A stretch of DNA of 64,000 nt from Candidatus Omnitrophota bacterium (GTDB lineage Bacteria; Omnitrophota; Gorgyraeia; Duberdicusellales; 4484-171), in contig JBAZGN010000002.1 in the NCBI GenBank assembly GCA_041652815.1, forward strand, positions 174,261 through 238,260, read 5' to 3'. Both the position numbers and the translations under genes were made by a program. The stretch's first letter is position 1, and each line of letters opens with the position of its first letter. This document shows, one piece after another, positions 5,745 to 53,209 of the stretch. The notes beneath the pieces were generated by a model that did no database searches, was not told the DNA's origin, and saw only the letters and a list, made by a program, of their open reading frames with translations.

Positions 5745-6710
5745 ATGAATACCTTATTACAGATAAAAAACATCGTAAAACACTTTCCTGCAAAAACAGG
5801 GTTCTTCGAGGCGGGTAGTGGTGTTATTCACGCTTTAAACGATGTGAGCTTTACCGTTGAACATGGTGAAACCTTAGGGTTAGTTGGCGAAAGCGGCTGC
5901 GGAAAATCTACTTTGGCAAAAATAATTGCCAGGCTTATTCCGTCAACCAGCGGTAAAATATTTTTCGAGGGAGAGGACATAACGCATCTTGCACAAAATA
6001 AGTTAAAAAAAATCCGGAGAAATATCCAGTTTGTTTTTCAGGACCCCCAGGCATCTTTAAACCCGCATATGACTATTGTTAATACTGTGAGTGAACCATT
6101 CGTTGTGCATGGCCTATGCAGCGCTAAAGGAGCCATTCCGGAAGCCGAGCGTATTTTAAGTTTAGCCGGTGTTCCAAAAGAAATGGTAAGTCGCTATCCG
6201 CATGAATTTAGCACAGGCCAACGCCAACGCATAGCCATTGCCAGGGCATTGGCTTTAAATCCCAAGCTAATTATTGCCGATGAGCCCATTGCCTCTCTTG
6301 ATGTTTCAATCCAAGCGCAAATATTGAATTTGTTTAAAGAACTAAAAGATAAATTTAATTTAACATATATTTTTATCAGCCACGACCTAAGGGTTATCGA
6401 ATATATAAGCGATAGGGTTATCGTTATGTATCTTGGCAAAATAATGGAAGTAGCGAAAAATAGCGATTTATACAGGCATCCTATTCATCCCTACACCGAA
6501 GCCCTTATCTCGGCTATACCTGTACCGGATCCCGCAACTAAAAAGAAACGCATAATACTAAGAGGCGAAATTCCCGGCACAACCAAACTTCCTTCTGGTT
6601 GTGTATTCCATACCCGCTGTGTATATGCTAAACAGAAATGTGTCGATGAAATTCCTGAACTAACCCGGCGTGACGGCCGTTCTTTTGCCTGTCATTTTCC
6701 GTTAGAGTAG
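5745..6710 (+). CDS. ABC peptide-transporter ATPase (OppF/DppF-like)
   Basis: Walker A GESGCGKST, signature FSTGQRQR and a C-terminal Cys-rich extension. Confidence 0.85.
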   Translation: MNTLLQIKNIVKHFPAKTGFFEAGSGVIHALNDVSFTVEHGETLGLVGESGCGKSTLAKIIARLIPSTSGKIFFEGEDITHLAQNKLKKIRRNIQFVFQDPQASLNPHMTIVNTVSEPFVVHGLCSAKGAIPEAERILSLAGVPKEMVSRYPHEFSTGQRQRIAIARALALNPKLIIADEPIASLDVSIQAQILNLFKELKDKFNLTYIFISHDLRVIEYISDRVIVMYLGKIMEVAKNSDLYRHPIHPYTEALISAIPVPDPATKKKRIILRGEIPGTTKLPSGCVFHTRCVYAKQKCVDEIPELTRRDGRSFACHFPLE

Positions 6711-6769
6711 ATACGAATTGTTATTGGTGTCCCCACATTTAAATTGAATATTTTCCGTTTTGGCTTATA

Positions 6770-7741
6770 ATGAATCTTCAAAAAGGGGAGGTAAAAATGA
6801 AGATTGATGTGAAAAAAATTATATATTCAACGGCGATATTCGTGTTTCTGTCTTGCGCAAACACTAACGTTTTTGCGCAAAGCCCAACTCAAACCGGCCA
6901 GGTTAAAGTCAGCGGCCCTAAAAAAACAATTGCAGTTGCGCGCTTCGAAAACAGTTCCGGAATTAATTCGTATATAGCAATTGGCGATGATTTTGCTGCT
7001 CAACTTAGCGACGCTCTTATACAAAGTGGAGAGTTCACTGTACTAAGCCGTAAAGACTTAGGGGCCGTGCTTACGGAGCAGGACCTTGCGGATAGCGGCC
7101 GCATGTCTAAATCTCTTTCAGCGCAAAAAGGAAAGATTATCCCGGCGCAAATCCTTATAACCGGAAACATCACTGAATTTGAAGAGAACACTCAAGGCGG
7201 CGGCCAGGGTTTAAGCATCCACGGTATAACTATTGGCGGCGCAAAATCTGACGCACATGTTGCAGTGATTGTGCAAATTATAGATTCAACTACCGGAGAA
7301 ATCTTAGATTCGCAAAGAGTAGAGGGCTTAGCAGACGCCTCTGCTTTTACTATAGGCTATAGCGGTTCTTTTAGTTTAGGCAGTTCCAGTTTTAAAAAGA
7401 CGCCTCTCGGTAAAGCTGTGCAAATTGCAATAGACAGGGCAGTAGTCTATATCTCCGATAATCTTAGTAAATTTCCTTGGCAAGGCAGGGTGGTTACAAT
7501 TAAAGATGGATTAGTCTATGTAAATGCCGGTTCTGACGCAGGCATCGTACCAGGCGAGACTTTTATTGTGTGCAGAAAAGGCGAAAGCTTGATAGATCCG
7601 GAAACCGGTATGGATTTAGGCACAGAAAAAACAAAAATAGGCGATATCATAATATCCGAAGTGCAGCCTAAGTTCTCGAAAGCAAAAATATTAAGTAATA
7701 CCGACCAGATTAGAGTATCGGATTTAGTTATAAAACAGTAA
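6770..7741 (+). CDS. CsgG/HfaB-family lipoprotein (curli-type secretion channel homologue) with a C-terminal extension
   Basis: Signal peptide. Blocks align by eye to E. coli CsgG: TIAVARFENSSG; ILITGNITEFEENTQGGG..ITIGGA; IDSTTGEIL. Confidence 0.6.
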   Translation: MNLQKGEVKMKIDVKKIIYSTAIFVFLSCANTNVFAQSPTQTGQVKVSGPKKTIAVARFENSSGINSYIAIGDDFAAQLSDALIQSGEFTVLSRKDLGAVLTEQDLADSGRMSKSLSAQKGKIIPAQILITGNITEFEENTQGGGQGLSIHGITIGGAKSDAHVAVIVQIIDSTTGEILDSQRVEGLADASAFTIGYSGSFSLGSSSFKKTPLGKAVQIAIDRAVVYISDNLSKFPWQGRVVTIKDGLVYVNAGSDAGIVPGETFIVCRKGESLIDPETGMDLGTEKTKIGDIIISEVQPKFSKAKILSNTDQIRVSDLVIKQ

Positions 7742-45296: not shown

Positions 45297-45450
45297 ACCC
45301 ATTACTTTATGGCTAATGGTGGCAGTATTGTATGCTAATTGCATACAAACATATGCAAAATGAATATAGAATAATTATCATCCGCTATACTTTGAAACCG
45401 AAGCCTTAGGGGTGTGCTAATGGGGGAAGCAGCTAAATAAATAATTTAGG

Positions 45451-45912
45451 TTAGGGTTCCTGCGTAAATAATTCTTTTTCCTCAGGGGATAAATCTCCAT
45501 CATAAAGCCAGAGAGAAATCTGCAAACGTTCATCAAGTATTCTTATAATTTTCCCATTCTTATTTATGCTTTGCCCTTTTTTCAGGTCTTTTACCGAACC
45601 GAAATCTTTCGATAGAAATACTACCTGATATGGAGTACCTTTAAGTGTTTTTTGTTCATTGGTTGTTACCAAATAATATTTATATACAGTATCTTTTTTC
45701 TCGCTGAAAAGATTATATTCTTCTACATTAGCAATTATTGCTTCGGCGGAGAAAGGTTTTCCGAAGAAGTCGTTTGCAATCTGATTACGCTGAAGGTCTG
45801 TGGCCTGCTTGAATTGATCAACCACATCCACAATGGCTTGCGCACCTGCAAAAGAAGAAAAACTGCCTAGAAAAACCAATCCGATAAAAAGACTTTTTAA
45901 CGCTAATTTCAT
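45451..45912 (-). CDS. Secreted hypothetical protein
   Basis: Signal peptide. No recognisable domain. Confidence 0.4.
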   Translation of the reverse strand: MKLALKSLFIGLVFLGSFSSFAGAQAIVDVVDQFKQATDLQRNQIANDFFGKPFSAEAIIANVEEYNLFSEKKDTVYKYYLVTTNEQKTLKGTPYQVVFLSKDFGSVKDLKKGQSINKNGKIIRILDERLQISLWLYDGDLSPEEKELFTQEP

Positions 45913-46208: not shown

Positions 46209-46236
46209 TTGACAGTGTATGTATTATGCATATAAT
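46209..46236 (+). promoter_or_regulatory. Consensus sigma70 promoter (TTGACA-16-TATAAT) overlapped by inverted repeat TGCATAT-AATA-ATATGCA
   Basis: Upstream of the TolC-like ORF. TGCATA/TATGCA half-sites recur at about 45338-45360, 46187 and 46257. Confidence 0.55.
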
Positions 46237-46280
46237 AATATGCAGAAGATATATAAATATATGCAAAAAGAATATAATGT

Positions 46281-47870
46281 ATGTTAAGGCTAAGCAAAAA
46301 TACCGCTAAATTATTAAAAATTTTCCTTAAGTATCCGGACGAGTCTTTTTATATACAACAATTGGGAAGGATTTTGAAGAAGAAACCAGGAGTTTTCCAG
46401 AGGACTCTTTATAATATGGAAGAAGAGAGTATTCTCAAAAGTGAATATAAGGCAAATGCCAGATTTTTTAAAATTAACAAAGAATATCGTTTTTATCAGG
46501 AAATAAAAAGCATTATTTCTAAAACTGCATGCATCATCATAATCTTTGCAGGTTTATTTTTTTCCGGCCTTAGCAAAGGCTCATGTGAAGATCCGGCTGG
46601 CAACATTGTTATCTTATCTTCGCTTAAGGACGCCCTCATTGTTGGTTTCAAGAACAACAAAATTATTCAAATCCAAGGCAAAGAAGTGGAAGCCGCTAAA
46701 GCCGATATTTTAGGCGCAAGAAGCGAATTCCTGCCATCGCTAGATTTCGACGCGGGCTACACGCATAACGGAGCAGTTCTTCCGCAAACAAGTTCTACTT
46801 CCTCAAAAAAAGACCCAGGAATATTCACCGGTTATAAAAATAATAATTCCACGGGGCTTTCACTAAACCAGATAGTTTATAACGGCGGTGCTAATGTCGC
46901 TAATTTAAAAGAAAAACAATTGGCAATGTCAGAGCAGGAAGAGACTTTGCGGGCTGTCAAATTAAACGTGGAATTAGAAACAAAGAGGCTGTATTACGGG
47001 CTTTTGCTTGCCTATGAAACAAAAGCAATTGCTGAAGATTTAGTTAAACAAGCCCAGGCTCATTATGAACATGTGAAAAAGAGTTTTGAGCAGGGCACTG
47101 CTTCCAGGTTCGATGTTTTACAGTCAAAAGTCCAGGTATCATTGCTTATGCCGGAATTAATTAATGCAATTAACACCATTGATTTGATTATGGCTGAATT
47201 GAATAAAACACTCGGCTTAAAAGTGCAGGAAATTATTGAAGTGCAGGATGAGCTAAACTATTCTCCCGTAGAAATTAAGGAGGGAGAATTTTTAAGGCAG
47301 GCTTATTTGAATAAGCCTGAAATGATTATACAATCATTGGGGATTGATATAAATAAATGGGCGATTAAATTTGCTAAATCAGGGTGGTTGCCGCAAGTTA
47401 ATGCCGGCGCTGATTATAATTATGCGTCGAATAATTTAAATAATATGTTTAACAGCCGGCATAATAATTGGAACGTGGGCGTTGCGCTTAATTTTGCTAT
47501 TTTCGATGGTTTTGCCACTAAAGCAAAAGTAGAAGCTGCCCGTGCACGTTATGCCCAGTCGTTAATCAGCAAGGAAAATGTCGCGGATGAAATAGCAGTA
47601 AGCGTACGACAGGCGTGTTTAGACTTACGCCAGGCGCAGGCGATTATTGATTCCCAGAAGGATAATCTGGAAGACGCCAAAGAAGCTTTAATGATTGCCG
47701 AGGTGCGTTTCGATAATGGCGTGGGGATTAATTTAGATGTTTTAGACGCACAAGTTGCTTTAGCACAGGTTAGGCAGAATCTTGCCAATGGTATTTATGA
47801 TTATATTATGGCAAAAGCAAACTTAGACAGAAATATGGGCGTGGAATATTTACAGCAGGTAAAAAAGTAA
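46281..47870 (+). CDS. TolC-family outer-membrane efflux protein with an anomalous N-terminal wHTH-like 85-aa extension
   Basis: C-terminal 440 aa is a clear TolC/OEP duplicated coiled-coil/beta architecture. A hydrophobic signal-like segment (CIIIIFAGLFFSGLS) has no ATG in frame. A consensus promoter lies upstream. Confidence 0.6.
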   Translation: MLRLSKNTAKLLKIFLKYPDESFYIQQLGRILKKKPGVFQRTLYNMEEESILKSEYKANARFFKINKEYRFYQEIKSIISKTACIIIIFAGLFFSGLSKGSCEDPAGNIVILSSLKDALIVGFKNNKIIQIQGKEVEAAKADILGARSEFLPSLDFDAGYTHNGAVLPQTSSTSSKKDPGIFTGYKNNNSTGLSLNQIVYNGGANVANLKEKQLAMSEQEETLRAVKLNVELETKRLYYGLLLAYETKAIAEDLVKQAQAHYEHVKKSFEQGTASRFDVLQSKVQVSLLMPELINAINTIDLIMAELNKTLGLKVQEIIEVQDELNYSPVEIKEGEFLRQAYLNKPEMIIQSLGIDINKWAIKFAKSGWLPQVNAGADYNYASNNLNNMFNSRHNNWNVGVALNFAIFDGFATKAKVEAARARYAQSLISKENVADEIAVSVRQACLDLRQAQAIIDSQKDNLEDAKEALMIAEVRFDNGVGINLDVLDAQVALAQVRQNLANGIYDYIMAKANLDRNMGVEYLQQVKK

Positions 47871-48145
47871 TCGCATTGAGGCAGTGGCTAAATTTTTAAA
47901 ACAATATTTTAGTTTTATTCTCCTTCGCCGAAAACCACTGACTTTAGTCCGGGGATGAAGGCGAAGGAGCTCCTGCGAAGCCCTACCAGCGTTTTAAATA
48001 GCAAAGGGCGAATTAGAGTGGCTTCGGAGGAATGAACCTTTGCCAAATTTTTCAAAGAAACCCCGCTATTTTAGCGGGGAGGTTCATTTAGCGCCGGTTG
48101 GGTATACAAAAAATTTGACAAATAGTTTTTAAACGGAGGAATGAT

Positions 48146-49024
48146 ATGGAAAATAAAATTCCGGTAAAACAAAAGATTTCTGATGCAGTGAAAAAAAGAA
48201 GCAAGCTCGTAATGATTGTTATCGCTATCGGTATTATAGCTTTTGCTTCGGCAATGTATGTGGGGTATGAGCGTAACGGAAACTCGAAAGTTATTAAAGT
48301 GTCAGGAAATATTGAAGGCGACGATGTCCGTATATCTTTTCGTATCGACGGCCAAATCGAAGAACTTTTAGCCGATGAAGGCATATTGCTTAAATTAGGG
48401 CAGATAGTTGCGCGGTTAAATAAAGATGAATTGAGTAAGCGGAAAGCAGAAGCAGAAGCATCCTTAAAACTTTCCCAATACCAATACAGGCTCGATTACG
48501 ACAATTACCTGCGCGCTGAGAATCTTTTTAAGGTAGGGGCTATTTCTGCCAGAGACAGAGACGCCGCCAAGACAAAAGCTGATACGGATAGGGCTGACAT
48601 AGATAAACTTCGTGCTTCTTTGGAATTGGCTAATACGCGCCTTGGGTGGGCAGATTTAGCTTCGCCGGTCAATGGTTATGTTTTGGTAAAAAGCGCTTTG
48701 CAGGGTGAGGTAGTGCAACCGGGCGCACCGGTCTTTACCGCAATTGATTTAAATAATATCTGGGTGACAGCCTACATTAACGAAACGGATTTAGCTAAAG
48801 TAAAATTAAATCAGAAAGCATACGTGAAAACAGATAGTTATTCGAATAAGAAATACGATGGCTGGGTTTCTTTTATTTCTAACCAGACCGAATTTACTCC
48901 CAAATATATTCAAACGACGGAAGAGCGCGTAAAGTATGTTTATAGAATTAAGGTAAGGGTAGATAATTCAAGTTTGGATTTAAAACCAGGAATGCCTGCA
49001 GACGCTTATATCCAGGTTAAGTAA
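48146..49024 (+). CDS. HlyD-family periplasmic adaptor (membrane fusion protein)
   Basis: N-terminal TM, coiled-coil, and a C-terminal beta-barrel/MFP pattern. Good RBS. Confidence 0.75.
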   Translation: MENKIPVKQKISDAVKKRSKLVMIVIAIGIIAFASAMYVGYERNGNSKVIKVSGNIEGDDVRISFRIDGQIEELLADEGILLKLGQIVARLNKDELSKRKAEAEASLKLSQYQYRLDYDNYLRAENLFKVGAISARDRDAAKTKADTDRADIDKLRASLELANTRLGWADLASPVNGYVLVKSALQGEVVQPGAPVFTAIDLNNIWVTAYINETDLAKVKLNQKAYVKTDSYSNKKYDGWVSFISNQTEFTPKYIQTTEERVKYVYRIKVRVDNSSLDLKPGMPADAYIQVK

Positions 49025-49030
49025 TATAGA

Positions 49031-49104
49031 AGGCAGATAACAGAAGTCAGATGACAGAGCGCAAATTTTTTCTGTCATCTGTTTTCTGACTTCTGTCGTT
49101 TGTC
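49031..49104. repeat. Family F-related palindrome (CAGATAACAGAAGTCAGATGACAGAG...CTGTCATCTGTTTTCTGACTTCTGTCG)
   Basis: Between HlyD and the first ABC ATPase. Confidence 0.6.
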
Positions 49105-49120
49105 GTCCGAGCTCTGTAAA

Positions 49121-49861
49121 ATGGTTACTATAAAAGTAGAAAATCTTACCAAAAAATTCGGGGCTTTAACTGCTCTTGATAAACTAAATCTTGAAGTGCA
49201 GGAAGGGGAAATTTTCGGTTTAGTCGGCCCTGACGGCGCAGGCAAAACGACAACGATGCGGTTATTAACAGGCATTTTGGATCCTACAGAAGGGCAAGCT
49301 TGGGTTTACAATAAGCATACGGTAAAAGAAGCGGAAAAATTAAAAGAGTATATAGCCTATATGTCTCAACGGTTTGGGCTTTATGAAGAGTTGAGCGTTA
49401 TGGAGAATATCAATTTTTACGCCGATGTTTATGGGGTCGCCAAAGAAAACCGCCATGAAGCTATTGAACGCTTACTTGGTTTTTCCGGATTACTGCCTTT
49501 CAAGCAGCGTTTTGCAGGCAAACTATCCGGAGGTATGAAGCAAAAATTAGGTTTAGCCTGCGCACTTATTCATACACCGCGCGTTCTTTTTTTGGATGAA
49601 CCTACAAACGGAGTGGATCCGGTGTCCCGAAGAGACTTTTGGAATATACTTTACGATTTACTTAAGGAAAAAGTCACAATATTCTGTTCTACTTGTTATC
49701 TTGACGAAGCTGAACGTTGTGCAAGAGTCGGCTTAATGCATAAGGGTAAACTGTTACGCTGCGATTCACCTGAGAGAATAAAAAAAGAGTGCAACGCTAA
49801 AACTCTCGAAGAAGCGTTTATTAAGATAATTAAAGAATATGAGAAAGAATCTGAAAAATAA
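49121..49861 (+). CDS. ABC transporter ATP-binding protein (YbhF-like, first cassette)
   Basis: Walker A GPDGAGKTT and LSGGMKQK. Upstream TTG start is rejected because it lies in a repeat. Confidence 0.8.
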   Translation: MVTIKVENLTKKFGALTALDKLNLEVQEGEIFGLVGPDGAGKTTTMRLLTGILDPTEGQAWVYNKHTVKEAEKLKEYIAYMSQRFGLYEELSVMENINFYADVYGVAKENRHEAIERLLGFSGLLPFKQRFAGKLSGGMKQKLGLACALIHTPRVLFLDEPTNGVDPVSRRDFWNILYDLLKEKVTIFCSTCYLDEAERCARVGLMHKGKLLRCDSPERIKKECNAKTLEEAFIKIIKEYEKESEK

Positions 49862-50003
49862 CCAAGCTCCAAGATACAATAACCAAACAATGACCAATAA
49901 TCAAATTCCAATAACCAAACGAAAAAGAACAAAACTGTTTGGTCATTGGTTATTGGATATTGGAATTTGTTTGTATCTTGTATCTTGGTTATTGGTTATT
50001 TAA
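49862..50003. repeat. Family B element, copy 3, between the two ABC ATPase genes
   Basis: ccaagatacaataaccaaac...ttggtcattggttattgg...cttgtatcttggttattggttatt. Confidence 0.8.
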
Positions 50004-50011
50004 AAACAATT

Positions 50012-50962
50012 ATGGACAATATAGCTGTAAGCGTTCAGAACCTCGAAAAAAAATTCGGGCAATTTATTGCAGTAAATAAAATTGACTTCGAAGTTAAGCA
50101 AGGCGAGATTTTTGGCTTCTTAGGCCCAAACGGAGCGGGAAAATCTACAACCATAAGGATGCTTTGCGGGATTATTCCTCCGACATCCGGAAGCGGGCAG
50201 GTAGGAGGATACGATATTACTAAGGAGCAGCGTAAGATAAAAGAGCATATAGGGTATATGTCACAAAAGTTTTCTTTATACAATGATTTAACCATTGAAG
50301 AAAATATTAATTTTTATAGTGGCATATATAAAATTCCAAAAGAGGATAAGATAGAACGTTTTAAAGAGGTAATTAATGCCGCGGGGTTGGAGGGAATGGA
50401 ATCAAACCTTACATCCACCCTTGCCGGCGGATGGAAACAACGCCTGGCGCTTGGATGCGCTCTTTTGCATAAGCCAAGAATCATATTTCTTGATGAGCCT
50501 ACTTCCGGTGTTGACCCGATAACTCGTGCTAATTTTTGGGGTATTATTAAAAAGTTAGCTGAGAATGGCGTTACTGTGTTTGTCACCACGCATTATATGG
50601 ATGAAGCTGAAAATTGTAACCGGATGGTTTTAATTTATCATGGCACAATTATCGCCAGAGGTACCCCCCAAGAGATGAAAACCAAATGCATGAAAAATGA
50701 AGTTCTTGAAATAACACTTTCTAACGCGCAAGATTGGCTTACAGCAATTAGCAAAATAGAAGGCGTAAAAGAGGCAGCGCTTTTCGGAGCAAGCATACAC
50801 GCGGTTGTCTATGACAGCAAAAAAGCTATGCCGGCAATAAAAGAATTTTTACAGAAAATTCCGTCAGGTGAATCCAGTGTGAATAAAATTCTTCCTTCAT
50901 TGGAAGATGTTTTTGTTTCCTCAATAGAAGAATATGACCGCACAGAGCCTAAAAAGAATTAA
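50012..50962 (+). CDS. ABC transporter ATP-binding protein (second cassette)
   Basis: Walker A GPNGAGKST and LAGGWKQR. Start moved to the ATG after repeat B3. Confidence 0.8.
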   Translation: MDNIAVSVQNLEKKFGQFIAVNKIDFEVKQGEIFGFLGPNGAGKSTTIRMLCGIIPPTSGSGQVGGYDITKEQRKIKEHIGYMSQKFSLYNDLTIEENINFYSGIYKIPKEDKIERFKEVINAAGLEGMESNLTSTLAGGWKQRLALGCALLHKPRIIFLDEPTSGVDPITRANFWGIIKKLAENGVTVFVTTHYMDEAENCNRMVLIYHGTIIARGTPQEMKTKCMKNEVLEITLSNAQDWLTAISKIEGVKEAALFGASIHAVVYDSKKAMPAIKEFLQKIPSGESSVNKILPSLEDVFVSSIEEYDRTEPKKN

Positions 50963-52076
50963 GGCTGTAGCCTGGAAAGAATTTGTTCAAATCAAGCGTG
51001 ACCCGCGCAGTTTGGGGCTCGCCTTAGCAATCCCTATATTTTTGTTGTTAGTTTTCGGCTACGGGCTTAGTTTGGATATTGATCATGTCCGGACCGTAGT
51101 CTGGAACCAGGATGCCACCTCAAAGCTTTCCCGCGACTTCCTGCTAAATTTTAAAAATTCAAAATATTTCAAAATAGTTAAATATACCGATAATTACCGC
51201 GATATCCAGTATATGATTGATAGCGGAGAGGTAATGATGGCTTTAGTTATACCAAAGGATTTTTCTCACTATATAGATTCCAAGCAGCCCGCTCCCTTAC
51301 AGCTTATAATCGATGGCAGTGATGCTAATACTGCTACTATTGCCAGGGGCTATGTTAGTAGTGTTGTTTCCAGTTATAATATTCAACTTATAACCAACAC
51401 TTTGGCTGATCTGGGGCTTAAGCCGACCCAGGGAATCGATGTGCGTTCCAGGATTTGGTTCAATATGGGGCTTACCAGCACCTGGTTTATTGTTCCCGGG
51501 GTTATTGCGATGATTATAATGATTATAGCCGCGCTGCTTACTTCAATTTGTATTGCCAGGGAATGGGAAAGAGGCACTATGGAGCAGTTGATTTCCACCC
51601 CGGTTAAGGCCAAGGAATTAATCATCGGTAAATTTATACCTTATTTTGCCATAGGTTTTTTTGACTTGTTAGTCGGCGTATTAATGGCAAAGTTTTTATT
51701 TAAAGTCCCGTTTAGGGGCAGCTACTTTTTGCTTTTCTTTTTAAGCGCGCTTTTCTTGACTGGAGCTTTATCCCAGGGTATATGGATTTCTGTAGTTGCC
51801 AGGACCCAATTGATGGCTAGCCAGCTGGCAACTTTAACCACAATGTTGCCGACTGTTCTTTTATCAGGATTTATTTACCCGATTTTTAATATGCCCAAAT
51901 TCATTCAGGCGATCACTTATTTTATTCCGGCGCGCTATTATATAGTTGTATTAAGGGAATTGTTTTTAAAGGGCGGCAGTTTAGAGTCTATGTGGGACGA
52001 GGCGCTTTTTCTTTTATTGTTTGCGTTTCTGATGTTTGGTTTGGCAGTGAAAAAATTTGAAAAAAAGGTAGTTTAA
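50934..52076 (+). CDS. ABC-2 family permease (YbhS/YbhR-like)
   Basis: 380 aa, N-terminal cytoplasmic segment then periplasmic loop then 5-6 TM. Overlaps the ATPase gene. Confidence 0.75.
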   Translation: MTAQSLKRIKAVAWKEFVQIKRDPRSLGLALAIPIFLLLVFGYGLSLDIDHVRTVVWNQDATSKLSRDFLLNFKNSKYFKIVKYTDNYRDIQYMIDSGEVMMALVIPKDFSHYIDSKQPAPLQLIIDGSDANTATIARGYVSSVVSSYNIQLITNTLADLGLKPTQGIDVRSRIWFNMGLTSTWFIVPGVIAMIIMIIAALLTSICIAREWERGTMEQLISTPVKAKELIIGKFIPYFAIGFFDLLVGVLMAKFLFKVPFRGSYFLLFFLSALFLTGALSQGIWISVVARTQLMASQLATLTTMLPTVLLSGFIYPIFNMPKFIQAITYFIPARYYIVVLRELFLKGGSLESMWDEALFLLLFAFLMFGLAVKKFEKKVV

Positions 52077-52081
52077 TAAAT

Positions 52082-53209
52082 ATGTTTGAAAGAGTATTAG
52101 CGATTTTAACAAAAGAATTTAAGCAGATTTTCCGTGATCCGCGGATGAAAACAGTTATTTTTGTTACTCCGCTTGTGCAAATACTTCTATTCGGCTATGC
52201 TGCGAATAAAGACATAAATTATGTTCCTACCGGCATTTTAGACCGCGATAATACCGTAGAGAGCCGTGAGCTTATACGCAGGTTTATATATTCCAAATAT
52301 TTTATACCTGAACATTATATTTATACCGAGAAAGAACAAAATTCGCTTCTCGATAAGGGCAAGGTAACCGTAGTTATCCATATTGACCGCGGTTTCGGCC
52401 GCAATATCAACGCGGGAAAAGACGCTCAAGTACAGTTGGCTTTTGACGGAACAGACTCAAACACTGCCATGATTGTTATGGGTTATGCTAATACAATTGT
52501 CAGTGAATTCCAATATGATTTGATGAAACAAAAGGCCATTGCCTTAGGGGAAATAGTCGCCATACCAAATGTTGACCTGAAAGACCGCGCATGGTTTAAT
52601 GGTAACCTTATTTCAAGGAATTATTATCTTCCCGGAGTTATTGCAACTATCGTGACGATGATGTCCCTTTTATTAACCGCAATGGCTATAGTAAAAGAAA
52701 AAGAAATCGGTACCATGGAACAGCTAATCGTAAGCCCGATAAAACCAATTGAACTTATAGTCGGCAAGCTTCTTCCTTTTGCCGTGATTGCTTTGGTGCA
52801 GATTACTTTAATTACAATTCTCGGAGTATTGTGGTTTCATGTGCCGCTGCGGGGAAATCTACTTTTATTGTTATTTTCTACATGTATATATTTGTTTACT
52901 ACGTTGGGGATAGGTTTATTTATATCTACAGTATCTTCCACCCAGCAGGAAGCAATGATGTCGGTTTTTCTTTTTTACATGCCGACAATTTTGCTCTCAG
53001 GGTTTGCTTACCCTATTGCCAATATGCCGGTAGTTATTCAATATTCCACGTTTTTAAATCCGCTGCGGTATTTTATGGTGGTGATAAGGGGTATTTTCTT
53101 GAAAGGAGTAGGATTGGATATTCTTTGGACGCAATTGGTCCCGTTACTTGTAATAGGTATGTTGGTTATTTCTTTTAGTACGTTTAAATTCCGTAAAAGT
53201 TTAGGTTAA
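52082..53209 (+). CDS. ABC-2 family permease (paralogous second subunit)
   Basis: 375 aa, same architecture. Confidence 0.75.
   Translation: MFERVLAILTKEFKQIFRDPRMKTVIFVTPLVQILLFGYAANKDINYVPTGILDRDNTVESRELIRRFIYSKYFIPEHYIYTEKEQNSLLDKGKVTVVIHIDRGFGRNINAGKDAQVQLAFDGTDSNTAMIVMGYANTIVSEFQYDLMKQKAIALGEIVAIPNVDLKDRAWFNGNLISRNYYLPGVIATIVTMMSLLLTAMAIVKEKEIGTMEQLIVSPIKPIELIVGKLLPFAVIALVQITLITILGVLWFHVPLRGNLLLLLFSTCIYLFTTLGIGLFISTVSSTQQEAMMSVFLFYMPTILLSGFAYPIANMPVVIQYSTFLNPLRYFMVVIRGIFLKGVGLDILWTQLVPLLVIGMLVISFSTFKFRKSLG

Follow-up and report, generated by a model that had tools for sequence, protein, structure and literature searches.

In a 64,000-nucleotide stretch of the genome of a Candidatus Omnitrophota bacterium (assembly GCA_041652815.1, contig JBAZGN010000002.1; hereafter the window) we find an open reading frame (ORF) of 529 amino acids (46281-47870, forward strand) with a predicted tripartite product: a winged-helix domain, a signal-peptide-like segment and the body of a TolC-family outer-membrane factor. 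The fusion is almost certainly real and conserved. The winged helix-turn-helix domain (wHTH, residues 1-82), a Sec-type signal peptide (residues ∼76-102) and TolC (residues ∼103-529) probably form a genuine, phylum-wide precursor that carries a wHTH autoregulator in its pre-sequence. The parts (wHTH autoregulator, Sec signal, TolC) are known; the arrangement is new.

A winged helix fused to TolC in the Omnitrophota

A preliminary description of the locus, made from the letters of the sequence, had assigned the N-terminal segment to the winged-helix DNA-binding type, and structure prediction and structural searches agree. The AlphaFold2 model (AF2; alignment of 38 sequences) contains helices at residues 6-17, 25-32 and 36-48 (the recognition helix), strands at 23-24, 52-57 and 60-65, and a further helix starting at residue 72, with predicted local distance difference test (pLDDT) values above 90 for residues 11-70; a model from a shallower alignment agrees. 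The β-hairpin 52-65 forms the predicted wing, and the modeled order of elements is H1-β1-H2-H3-β2-β3, as in a winged helix. When compared with the PDB using Foldseek, the top 50 matches are all ArsR/SmtB or MarR repressors (probability 1.00, E-values 5e-4 to 9e-3, root-mean-square deviation ∼2.1-2.6 Å across ∼80 residues) and include 3r0a, AntR, MepR, MexR, CadC, HlyU, CzrA and SmtB. The modeled fold is that of an ArsR/MarR-type wHTH. A sequence search of the PDB gave 3r0a as the best match (E = 0.05), none of the Pfam winged-helix families (MarR, MarR_2, HTH_5/20 and similar) recognized the domain, with MarR_2 reaching only E = 0.091 in a homologue, and tblastn located no further copy in the window. 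The domain matches the N-terminal ∼80 positions of PADLOC PDC-M05A (E = 3.1e-13). Its invariant residues, K35-R41 and A58-F63, fall in the recognition helix and in the wing.

With the entire ORF as query, 784 homologues were obtained at E ≤ 1e-30. Of these, the 120 top-scoring ones come almost exclusively from Candidatus Omnitrophota (484-562 amino acids, 91-100% query coverage, 56-100% identity) and have uniform N-termini, in which the wHTH is followed by a Lys-rich stretch, a hydrophobic segment and TolC. This contiguous architecture is present in 153 unique fused Omnitrophota sequences, among which the wHTH has a mean pairwise identity of 65.7%, the TolC body one of 62.8% and the intervening segment one of 21.8%. 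The N-terminal domain is thus under at least as much constraint as the channel, and the linker changes in the manner of a signal peptide. Searching one genome per GTDB species with the N-terminal domain yielded 80 loci: the domain is fused to TolC in 46 (505-556 amino acids, among them the complete genome NZ_CP019384 of Ca. Velamenicoccus archaeovorus LiM, in which the gene lies near 255.2 kb) and to a nucleotidyltransferase (NTase) in 24 (188-225 amino acids), and the remaining 10 are split, truncated or have different partners. When the TolC body alone was used as query, 44 of 69 orthologues were found to carry the fusion; as 24 of the 69 do not, the fusion is not required for the exporter. 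A neighbor-joining tree of the 82-residue domain resolved neither the monophyly of the TolC-linked domains nor the branching of the split forms described below. Judged from these sequence comparisons, the fusion is ancient and under purifying selection. Public annotations label more than 150 fused proteins merely "TolC family protein".

The reading frame opens only at 46278, and ATG 46281 is therefore the earliest start possible. In-frame ATG, GTG or TTG codons occur at codons 1, 28, 32 and 46 only; none is found from codon 47 to past codon 115. The N-terminus quoted in the preliminary description and its statement that no in-frame start just precedes the signal segment both hold. It had also pointed to the lack of a clear ribosome-binding site at 46281: a Shine-Dalgarno sequence is indeed absent, but this is not unusual, because only 9 of 41 long ORFs in the window carry one. 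The exact same protein is encoded in two further public assemblies (GCA_023227945.1 and the Logan assembly of SRR18595300), which may derive from the same sample. One public gene call, by JGI (P0020, 484 amino acids) begins at Met46 (46416) and halves the winged helix. Gene callers that restart at Met46 lose the domain, an annotation hazard for the family, and the ORF ought not to be "repaired" by curators as a frameshift. Some relatives are damaged: in L036 (6001-6260) the frame is shifted within an A5T5 run at the junction, in L022 and L064 it stops prematurely ∼30 residues into TolC, and L052 encodes a 376-residue chimera of TolC and the C-terminus of an ABC ATPase. These lesions are either assembly errors or decaying copies.

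A profile search located 2063 clusters containing the domain at E ≤ 1e-3, mostly of 180-200 amino acids. The 150 listed representatives of a 50% clustering are mostly 180-200-residue NTase fusions and include no ∼530-residue TolC fusion, and this list is unusable for counting the latter. The domain is occasionally joined to other partners, namely a zeta-like kinase, a methylase, Fn3 repeats or low-complexity tails; none of the partners other than TolC starts with a signal peptide. Together with its operators the wHTH also heads 188-225-residue wHTH-NTase genes in L016, L018, L033 (for example 6001-6922), L066 and ∼20 other loci from Omnitrophota, Aminicenantes, Stahlbacteria and others, each of which overlaps a HEPN gene (PADLOC candidate PDC-M05).

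Promoter and candidate operators

The ORF is preceded by a sigma-70 promoter that matches the consensus at all 12 positions, as the preliminary description had it (Table 1). The overlapping inverted repeat reported there is perfect (TGCATAT at 46227-46233, AATA, ATATGCA at 46238-46244), and the similar half-sites are seen at 45340/45352 and 46259. The 7-4-7 palindrome is thus present, but it is not the repeated unit: it forms the seam between two units phased by 21 bp, and the unit itself is the palindrome TATATGC-N5-GCATATA (TATATGCAAAAnGcATATA). A 40-nucleotide repeat comprising two such units is found at 45329-45368, 46216-46255 and 46237-46276. The distal copy adjoins the 3' end of a divergent gene for a 153-residue protein. 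It does not resemble a second promoter, there being no -35 box at 45329-45368 and none conserved in the corresponding doublets of relatives. Counts of TGCATA and TATGCA over the whole window are at expectation (17 and 24 versus ∼21), although both motifs are tightly clustered at this locus; it is hence the clustering and the comparative test that are informative.

Alignment by eye of the 150 nucleotides upstream of every fused gene revealed a common arrangement of cTTGACA, 16-18 nucleotides and TATAAT, overlaid by two to five units. A perfect 12/12 promoter lies in the equivalent position in 26 of 44 fused loci, and at least 11 of 12 positions match in 37 of 44. In 37 fused loci and 17 of the NTase type, unit 1 starts 15 nucleotides ahead of the -10 box; counted from the same box, unit 2 begins at +6 and unit 3 at +26/27. 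Most often the units are spaced by 21 nucleotides, which corresponds to two helical turns. Allowing at most one mismatch, these 150-nucleotide regions contain 1.05 sites per region for fused genes and 0.63 for wHTH-NTase genes, and 727 kb of flanking DNA contain 13 sites in total, a ∼390-fold enrichment upstream of the orthologues. All 13 flanking sites belong to doublets 400-1300 nucleotides upstream of fused genes, so that there is essentially no true background. Distal doublets like that of the window occur at this distance in at least nine other loci, and in every locus with a mapped 153-residue gene they lie just past its 3' end.

As an independent set we scanned 80 metagenome loci collected with the TolC body alone (375 kb, at most two mismatches): of 98 sites, 97 are situated no more than 1.5 kb upstream of a wHTH coding region. 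For 24 tolC orthologues lacking the wHTH, a single weak site was found in 20.7 kb. In Omnitrophota, Aminicenantes and Stahlbacteria, the wHTH-NTase genes have a matching two-unit operator over their promoter, and the palindromes also precede stand-alone wHTH genes, these NTase-linked and stand-alone cases spanning several phyla. As the operator is present before wHTH-NTase and stand-alone wHTH genes and absent before tolC genes without the domain, it tracks the domain and not the cargo. Two distant wHTH paralogues (36% identity), whose recognition helix differs, are associated with another palindrome, TGTAA...TTACA. The earlier proposal that the repeats are candidate operators is borne out by their co-occurrence with the domain in more than 100 loci and their absence from orthologous tolC genes without it.

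By these comparisons, the wHTH always comes with its own near-consensus sigma-70 promoter and two to five phased operators, whether TolC, a nucleotidyltransferase or nothing follows, and the domain is a portable, probably autoregulatory module. Co-occurrence and covariation of domain and palindromes point to sequence-specific DNA binding, and the wHTH likely reads the operators. A promoter of maximal strength lying under phased palindromes argues for auto-repression, and we take repression as the probable sign of regulation.

Signal-peptide-like segment, proposed processing and alternative explanations

Proteins of the TolC family are expected to carry a cleavable signal peptide at the extreme N-terminus; here the segment starts at about residue 83, behind a folded 82-residue domain. 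In the window, the h-region spans A83-L97 and the c-region S98-C102, with small residues at S98/G100 or G100/C102, and the n-region lysines K76 and K81 lie in the last wHTH helix. In the 153 fused sequences the uncharged stretch measures 19.5 ± 3.0 residues and is preceded by 2-4 Lys/Arg in eight residues, which correspond to the end of the last wHTH helix. The c-region is rich in Gly, Ser and Pro, Ala/Cys/Ser/Gly are frequent at its last positions, and Glu or Asp follows the stretch in 122 of 153 sequences. A Met is close to the junction in 28 sequences and absent from it in 125. By composition, the n-, h- and c-regions and the small residues at -3/-1 are thus those of a Sec-type signal peptide, and the preliminary description of a hydrophobic, signal-like segment leading into a canonical TolC body agrees with this composition and with the Pfam assignment (see below). 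AF2 predicts a continuous 26-residue helix (72-97), followed by a disordered stretch (98-114) and the first TolC helix.

Separate small wHTH genes, which the preliminary description had advised looking for, are found in a small number of lineages. That of L049 ends at 89 amino acids, after which AAGGAG-N6-TTG starts TolC with LPDKKKYKILVLIILISFISSYCFS|QE; in L007 a TAG stop is followed four codons later by MPKRIIYLSLIFTSLVCFYTPRVYSG|EV; L112 is similar, with a separate wHTH gene and a Met-led TolC signal peptide. The Met-led signal peptides of all three end in the same xCx|QE-type site as the fused forms, so the mature N-terminus has the same character behind a Met-led and behind a wHTH-led signal peptide. 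Split and fused states are thus evolutionarily interchangeable. Cleavage by signal peptidase I is the simplest inference from the c-region and the equivalent Met-led signal peptides, and we consider it rather likely that the precursor is cleaved as proposed. A Cys is conserved at this site in 58% of the sequences, with Ala, Ser or Gln in the remainder. We considered a lipoprotein reading of this residue and rejected it; signal peptidase I is preferred because the -1 residue is mostly Phe, Leu, Tyr or Ile rather than Gly, Ala or Ser, and because the Cys is not obligatory.

A mechanism can be proposed on this basis. A wHTH dimer would bind the palindromic units and auto-repress an otherwise very strong promoter; the three units would shield the region from the -10 box to the start codon (46216-46276), and the distal doublet may help as an auxiliary operator by looping, or might control the 153-residue gene. 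The hydrophobic segment would target the nascent chain to Sec while the folded wHTH stays cytoplasmic. Signal peptidase I would cut after a small-x-small site (G100 or C102), TolC would proceed to the outer membrane, and the ∼100-residue fragment of wHTH and signal peptide would stay anchored in the inner membrane or be released by signal-peptide peptidase. This fragment would act back on the promoter in proportion to the exported channel. A regulator made 1:1 with the exported channel would thereby place the operon under negative feedback. Omnitrophota cells are 0.2-0.3 µm across, and a membrane tether would hardly limit access to DNA. The full idea of a "regulator in the leader", in which the TolC signal peptide doubles as the membrane anchor of its own repressor and transcription is set by the count of successful exports, is tentative, and we hold it to be possible rather than probable.

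Several points weigh against the proposed precursor. That the domain binds DNA, that it represses rather than activates, and that the precursor is cleaved are inferences. Residues 1-85 score below every Pfam and NCBIfam threshold, and the structure-search E-values are modest, 5e-4 at best. The orthologous tolC genes without fusion have been mentioned above. An internal signal peptide behind a folded 82-residue domain is atypical, the c-region of the window (SKGSC) includes a lysine, and the frequent Cys leaves room for lipoprotein-type or other processing. Finally, the modeled helix, continuous from the wHTH into the hydrophobic segment, might constrain DNA binding when membrane-anchored.

Four other explanations were compared with the precursor. 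That the fused ORF is a pseudogene or mis-assembly caused by a frameshift, a lost stop or a sequencing error can practically be dismissed: the split arrangements of a few lineages, the frameshifted relative L036 and the T7 run inside the signal-peptide region would fit it, but the same in-frame junction recurs in the 153 unique sequences (56-83% identity) from independent assemblies, a closed genome among them, the N-terminal domain equals TolC in amino acid conservation, and the identical protein stands in the two further assemblies, even if these may share a sample. The preliminary description had suggested a frameshift or sequencing error near the T-run, placed at about 46551 (it is at 46557-46563), and had itself named a contiguous extension conserved in orthologues as the finding that would speak against this; such an extension is what the 153 orthologues keep. 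Its lost stop fusing a regulator to tolC is sound as evolutionary history, as split forms exist, but not as a defect of this genome, the fusion being old and maintained. A programmed frameshift at the T7 run was also considered and rejected: the signal region is only 21.8% identical, and there is hence no conserved slippery site. Very unlikely, too, is that TolC is made from an internal non-canonical start (for example ATT at Ile78, or ATA at codon 75) with the fused protein minor or irrelevant. Ile78 is 97% conserved and always a near-cognate codon, AGGA lies 10 nucleotides upstream of ATT78 in the window, and a minority of orthologues have the Met near the junction noted above. Yet Ile78 is equally conserved in the NTase family, so that its conservation is structural; Shine-Dalgarno-like motifs precede codon 78 in 9 of 47 TolC-fused versus 7 of 23 NTase-fused genes, which need no internal start; 125 of the 153 orthologues have no Met there; and ribosomes from the upstream start would still read through to the fusion. 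The ATA/ATT start envisaged in the preliminary description is therefore disfavored, the contiguous extension being conserved in orthologues and ribosome-binding motifs showing no enrichment before the junction.

If the segment were instead an uncleaved signal anchor, the intact protein would act as a ToxR/CadC-like regulator, with the wHTH on DNA and the TolC part in the outer membrane, physically coupling the locus or the inner membrane to the channel. The order of cytoplasmic wHTH, one hydrophobic helix and periplasmic domain is indeed that of ToxR-like receptors (PMC6320335, PMC7888679), and the continuous AF2 helix 72-97 would suit an anchor. We regard this as unlikely: the 19.5-residue stretch with helix breakers, small -1/-3 residues and subsequent acidic residues is signal-peptide-like, the ∼10-15 residues to the first TolC helix are by our own geometric estimate too short to reach from the inner membrane to the N-terminal region of TolC, and in the split forms TolC has an ordinary, cleavable signal peptide whose end is a site of the same type. 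The N-terminal domain might also serve another cytoplasmic role, such as export timing, a chaperone-like function or docking to the ABC ATPases, while another protein binds the palindromes. Winged helices can mediate protein-protein contacts, and no curated DNA-binding family scores above threshold; but the repeats follow the domain and not its cargo, paralogues with a changed recognition helix have changed palindromes, and the invariant residues sit in recognition helix and wing, which makes this account distinctly unlikely.

Operon context, other regulators and known systems

The TolC body contains two Pfam OEP repeats (PF02321; residues ∼114-520, E = 8.6e-71, 238 bits versus a cut-off of 22). 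Scores for the NCBIfam models TIGR01844 (type_I_sec_TolC, 159.7 versus 225.15 bits) and TIGR01845 (NodT, 96.6 versus 210.05) stay below their cut-offs, and the protein is accordingly a superfamily member belonging to no curated subfamily. The fused gene leads an operon in the order TolC/HlyD/ABC/ABC/ABC-2/ABC-2 (Table 1), kept in all 46 species-level loci where the contig reaches. The divergent 153-residue secreted protein matches no Pfam family, and its gene is syntenic in ∼25 orthologous loci. Conservation of the exporter proteins within the phylum is unusually high (ABC ATPase 1 75-92% and permease 1 71-84% identity; 43000-64000 of the window and loci L003-L082), a sequence pattern that suggests essential housekeeping export rather than an accessory drug pump. 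The gene of ABC ATPase 1 is not among the genes listed in the public record that covers this region (L001), despite this conservation, probably owing to its TTG start. A spacer of 275 nucleotides (47871-48145) separates tolC from hlyD, which abut in many relatives; it contains a strong 8-bp GC-rich hairpin (48061-48079, CCCCGCTATTTTAGCGGGG) that may be an attenuator setting the ratio of TolC to pump.

Table 1. Features of the fused tolC locus and its operon, in window coordinates
Feature	Position	Strand	Basis or remark
Distal operator doublet (candidate): TGTATGCTAATTGCATACA at 45329-45347 and CATATGCAAAATGAATATA at 45350-45368	45329..45368	.	40-nucleotide repeat, operator scan
Divergent gene, 153-residue secreted protein	45451..45912	-	N-terminal signal peptide ending AQA; bracketed by distal and proximal operators
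Consensus sigma-70 promoter: TTGACA (46209-46214), 16-nucleotide spacer, TATAAT (46231-46236)	46209..46236	+	12/12 match
Candidate operator unit 1, TGTATGTATTATGCATATA, across promoter spacer and first 4 nucleotides of -10 box	46216..46234	.	comparative geometry
Inverted repeat TGCATAT-AATA-ATATGCA (right half of unit 1 and left half of unit 2)	46227..46244	.	perfect 7-4-7
Candidate operator unit 2, AATATGCAGAAGATATATA, over predicted transcription start	46237..46255	.	21-nucleotide spacing dominant
Candidate operator unit 3, TATATGCAAAAAGAATATA, ending 4 nucleotides short of ATG	46258..46276	.	comparative geometry
Predicted winged-helix domain, codons 1-82	46281..46526	+	AF2, Foldseek, PDC-M05A match, 153 orthologues
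Signal-peptide-like segment, codons 83-102	46527..46586	+	composition, 21.8% identity, AF2, split forms
TolC-family outer-membrane factor body, codons 103-529 and stop	46587..47870	+	two Pfam OEP repeats
Remaining operon after tolC	48146..53209	+	
HlyD-type adaptor	48146..49024	+	
ABC ATPase 1	49100..49861	+	253 amino acids, TTG start
ABC ATPase 2	50012..50962	+	
ABC-2 permeases	50934..52076 and 52082..53209	+	

Where an orthologous operon lacks the wHTH, a different small regulator gene usually lies directly upstream, of XRE type (63-66 amino acids), MerR-like (86), TetR-like (197) or AbrB/MazE-like (83). In three loci an XRE/Cro-C1 HTH (Pfam HTH_3, E = 4.9e-12), unrelated to the wHTH, is joined in frame to the TolC signal peptide (L119, 520-2058, 512 amino acids; L134, 2222-3802, 526 amino acids; L136, 2249-3790, 513 amino acids). 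The junction (...KVDDLI|hydrophobic) is at the same place as in the wHTH fusion, and the promoters of these genes carry repeats that differ from the wHTH operators. Identity between L119 and L134 is just 62%. In L117, L137 and L148 this XRE is encoded by a gene of its own (63-66 residues) directly upstream of tolC, and the family is overwhelmingly stand-alone (769 matches of 63-79 amino acids, one fused fragment). Rare XRE fusions could in principle include assembly errors, but an in-frame deletion of stop, Met and n-region is needed, beyond a simple indel. Fusion of a regulator to TolC has thus arisen with at least two unrelated DNA-binding folds, the wHTH version having become the majority state.

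ToxR and CadC regulators bind DNA from the membrane (PMC6320335, PMC7888679), and CadC can be activated through proteolytic cleavage (PMC11484849). They share with the Omnitrophota protein an N-terminal cytoplasmic winged helix, a single hydrophobic helix and a periplasmic C-terminal part. However, their wHTH is of OmpR type, their periplasmic part a sensor and their anchor stable, whereas the Omnitrophota domain is ArsR/MarR-like, the segment looks cleavable and signal-peptide-like, and the periplasmic part is a complete outer-membrane channel, itself the regulated product. The N-terminal domain is homologous to that of the wHTH-nucleotidyltransferase (MNT-like) partners of HEPN proteins (PDC-M05; 55-65% identity), with the same domain boundary (...KSI[IV]xKT) and promoter/operator cassette. 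True PDC-M05A-like members (L033, L066) are 192-residue proteins with Polbeta/NTP_transf_2 and an overlapping downstream HEPN gene, forming MNT/HEPN-like pairs. The fused protein matches PDC-M05A by its N-terminus only, has neither nucleotidyltransferase nor HEPN partner, is followed by HlyD and has a secreted C-terminal partner, which sets it apart from HEPN-MNT (type VII) toxin-antitoxin systems.

In fold class the domain resembles MarR/ArsR efflux repressors such as MexR of mexAB-oprM and MepR, both among its best structural matches, and like these it may act as a small dimeric wHTH over promoter palindromes. MexR and MepR are separate soluble proteins with ligand-binding or dimerization helices; the Omnitrophota wHTH is a minimal 82 residues and part of a channel precursor. 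In Escherichia coli, the ABC-2 exporter YbhG-YbhFSR works with TolC and is regulated by the TetR-type CecR, tolC being unlinked and the regulator a separate gene. Both systems have a HlyD-type adaptor, two ABC ATPase units, two ABC-2 permeases, a TolC-type duct and a local repressor, and some Omnitrophota orthologues also have a TetR gene upstream; unlike in E. coli, the Omnitrophota tolC is the first gene of the operon and includes the regulator domain. Among long signal peptides that have functions after targeting are the 98-residue signal peptide of mouse mammary tumor virus (MMTV) Rem/Env, the 13-kDa signal peptide of HERV-K(HML-2), an endogenous retrovirus of humans, and the "NtraC" type (PMC8725593, PMC2649029, PMC2447879). 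Shared features are a ∼100-residue pre-sequence with a nucleic-acid-related N-terminal module and, as proposed here, release by signal peptidase; the known cases are eukaryotic or viral, targeted to the endoplasmic reticulum and RNA-binding or nuclear, whereas ours is bacterial. In the searchable literature we found no bacterial long signal peptide with a folded DNA-binding domain, and in the open literature no connection between TolC or efflux and an HTH fusion, be it in Omnitrophota or in other organisms; the two main Omnitrophota genomics papers do not mention TolC or efflux.

By textbook expectation a signal peptide is at the extreme N-terminus and transcription factors are cytoplasmic; here, a folded DNA-binding domain is conserved ahead of a secretion signal. 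If the proposed scheme is true, each TolC exported by Sec would leave behind one wHTH-signal-peptide fragment, tethered or released by intramembrane proteolysis, as a secretion-counting feedback, and the independent XRE fusions would indicate that selection found this solution more than once. A leader fragment acting as repressor would be a compact coupling of expression to export, with regulator and product fixed at 1:1, and a bacterial counterpart of the functional long signal peptides of retroviruses. The operator is defined, and the portable cassette of promoter, operator and wHTH is common to candidate defense and toxin-antitoxin modules. The uncultivated Omnitrophota thus gain a first experimentally testable cis-regulatory code.

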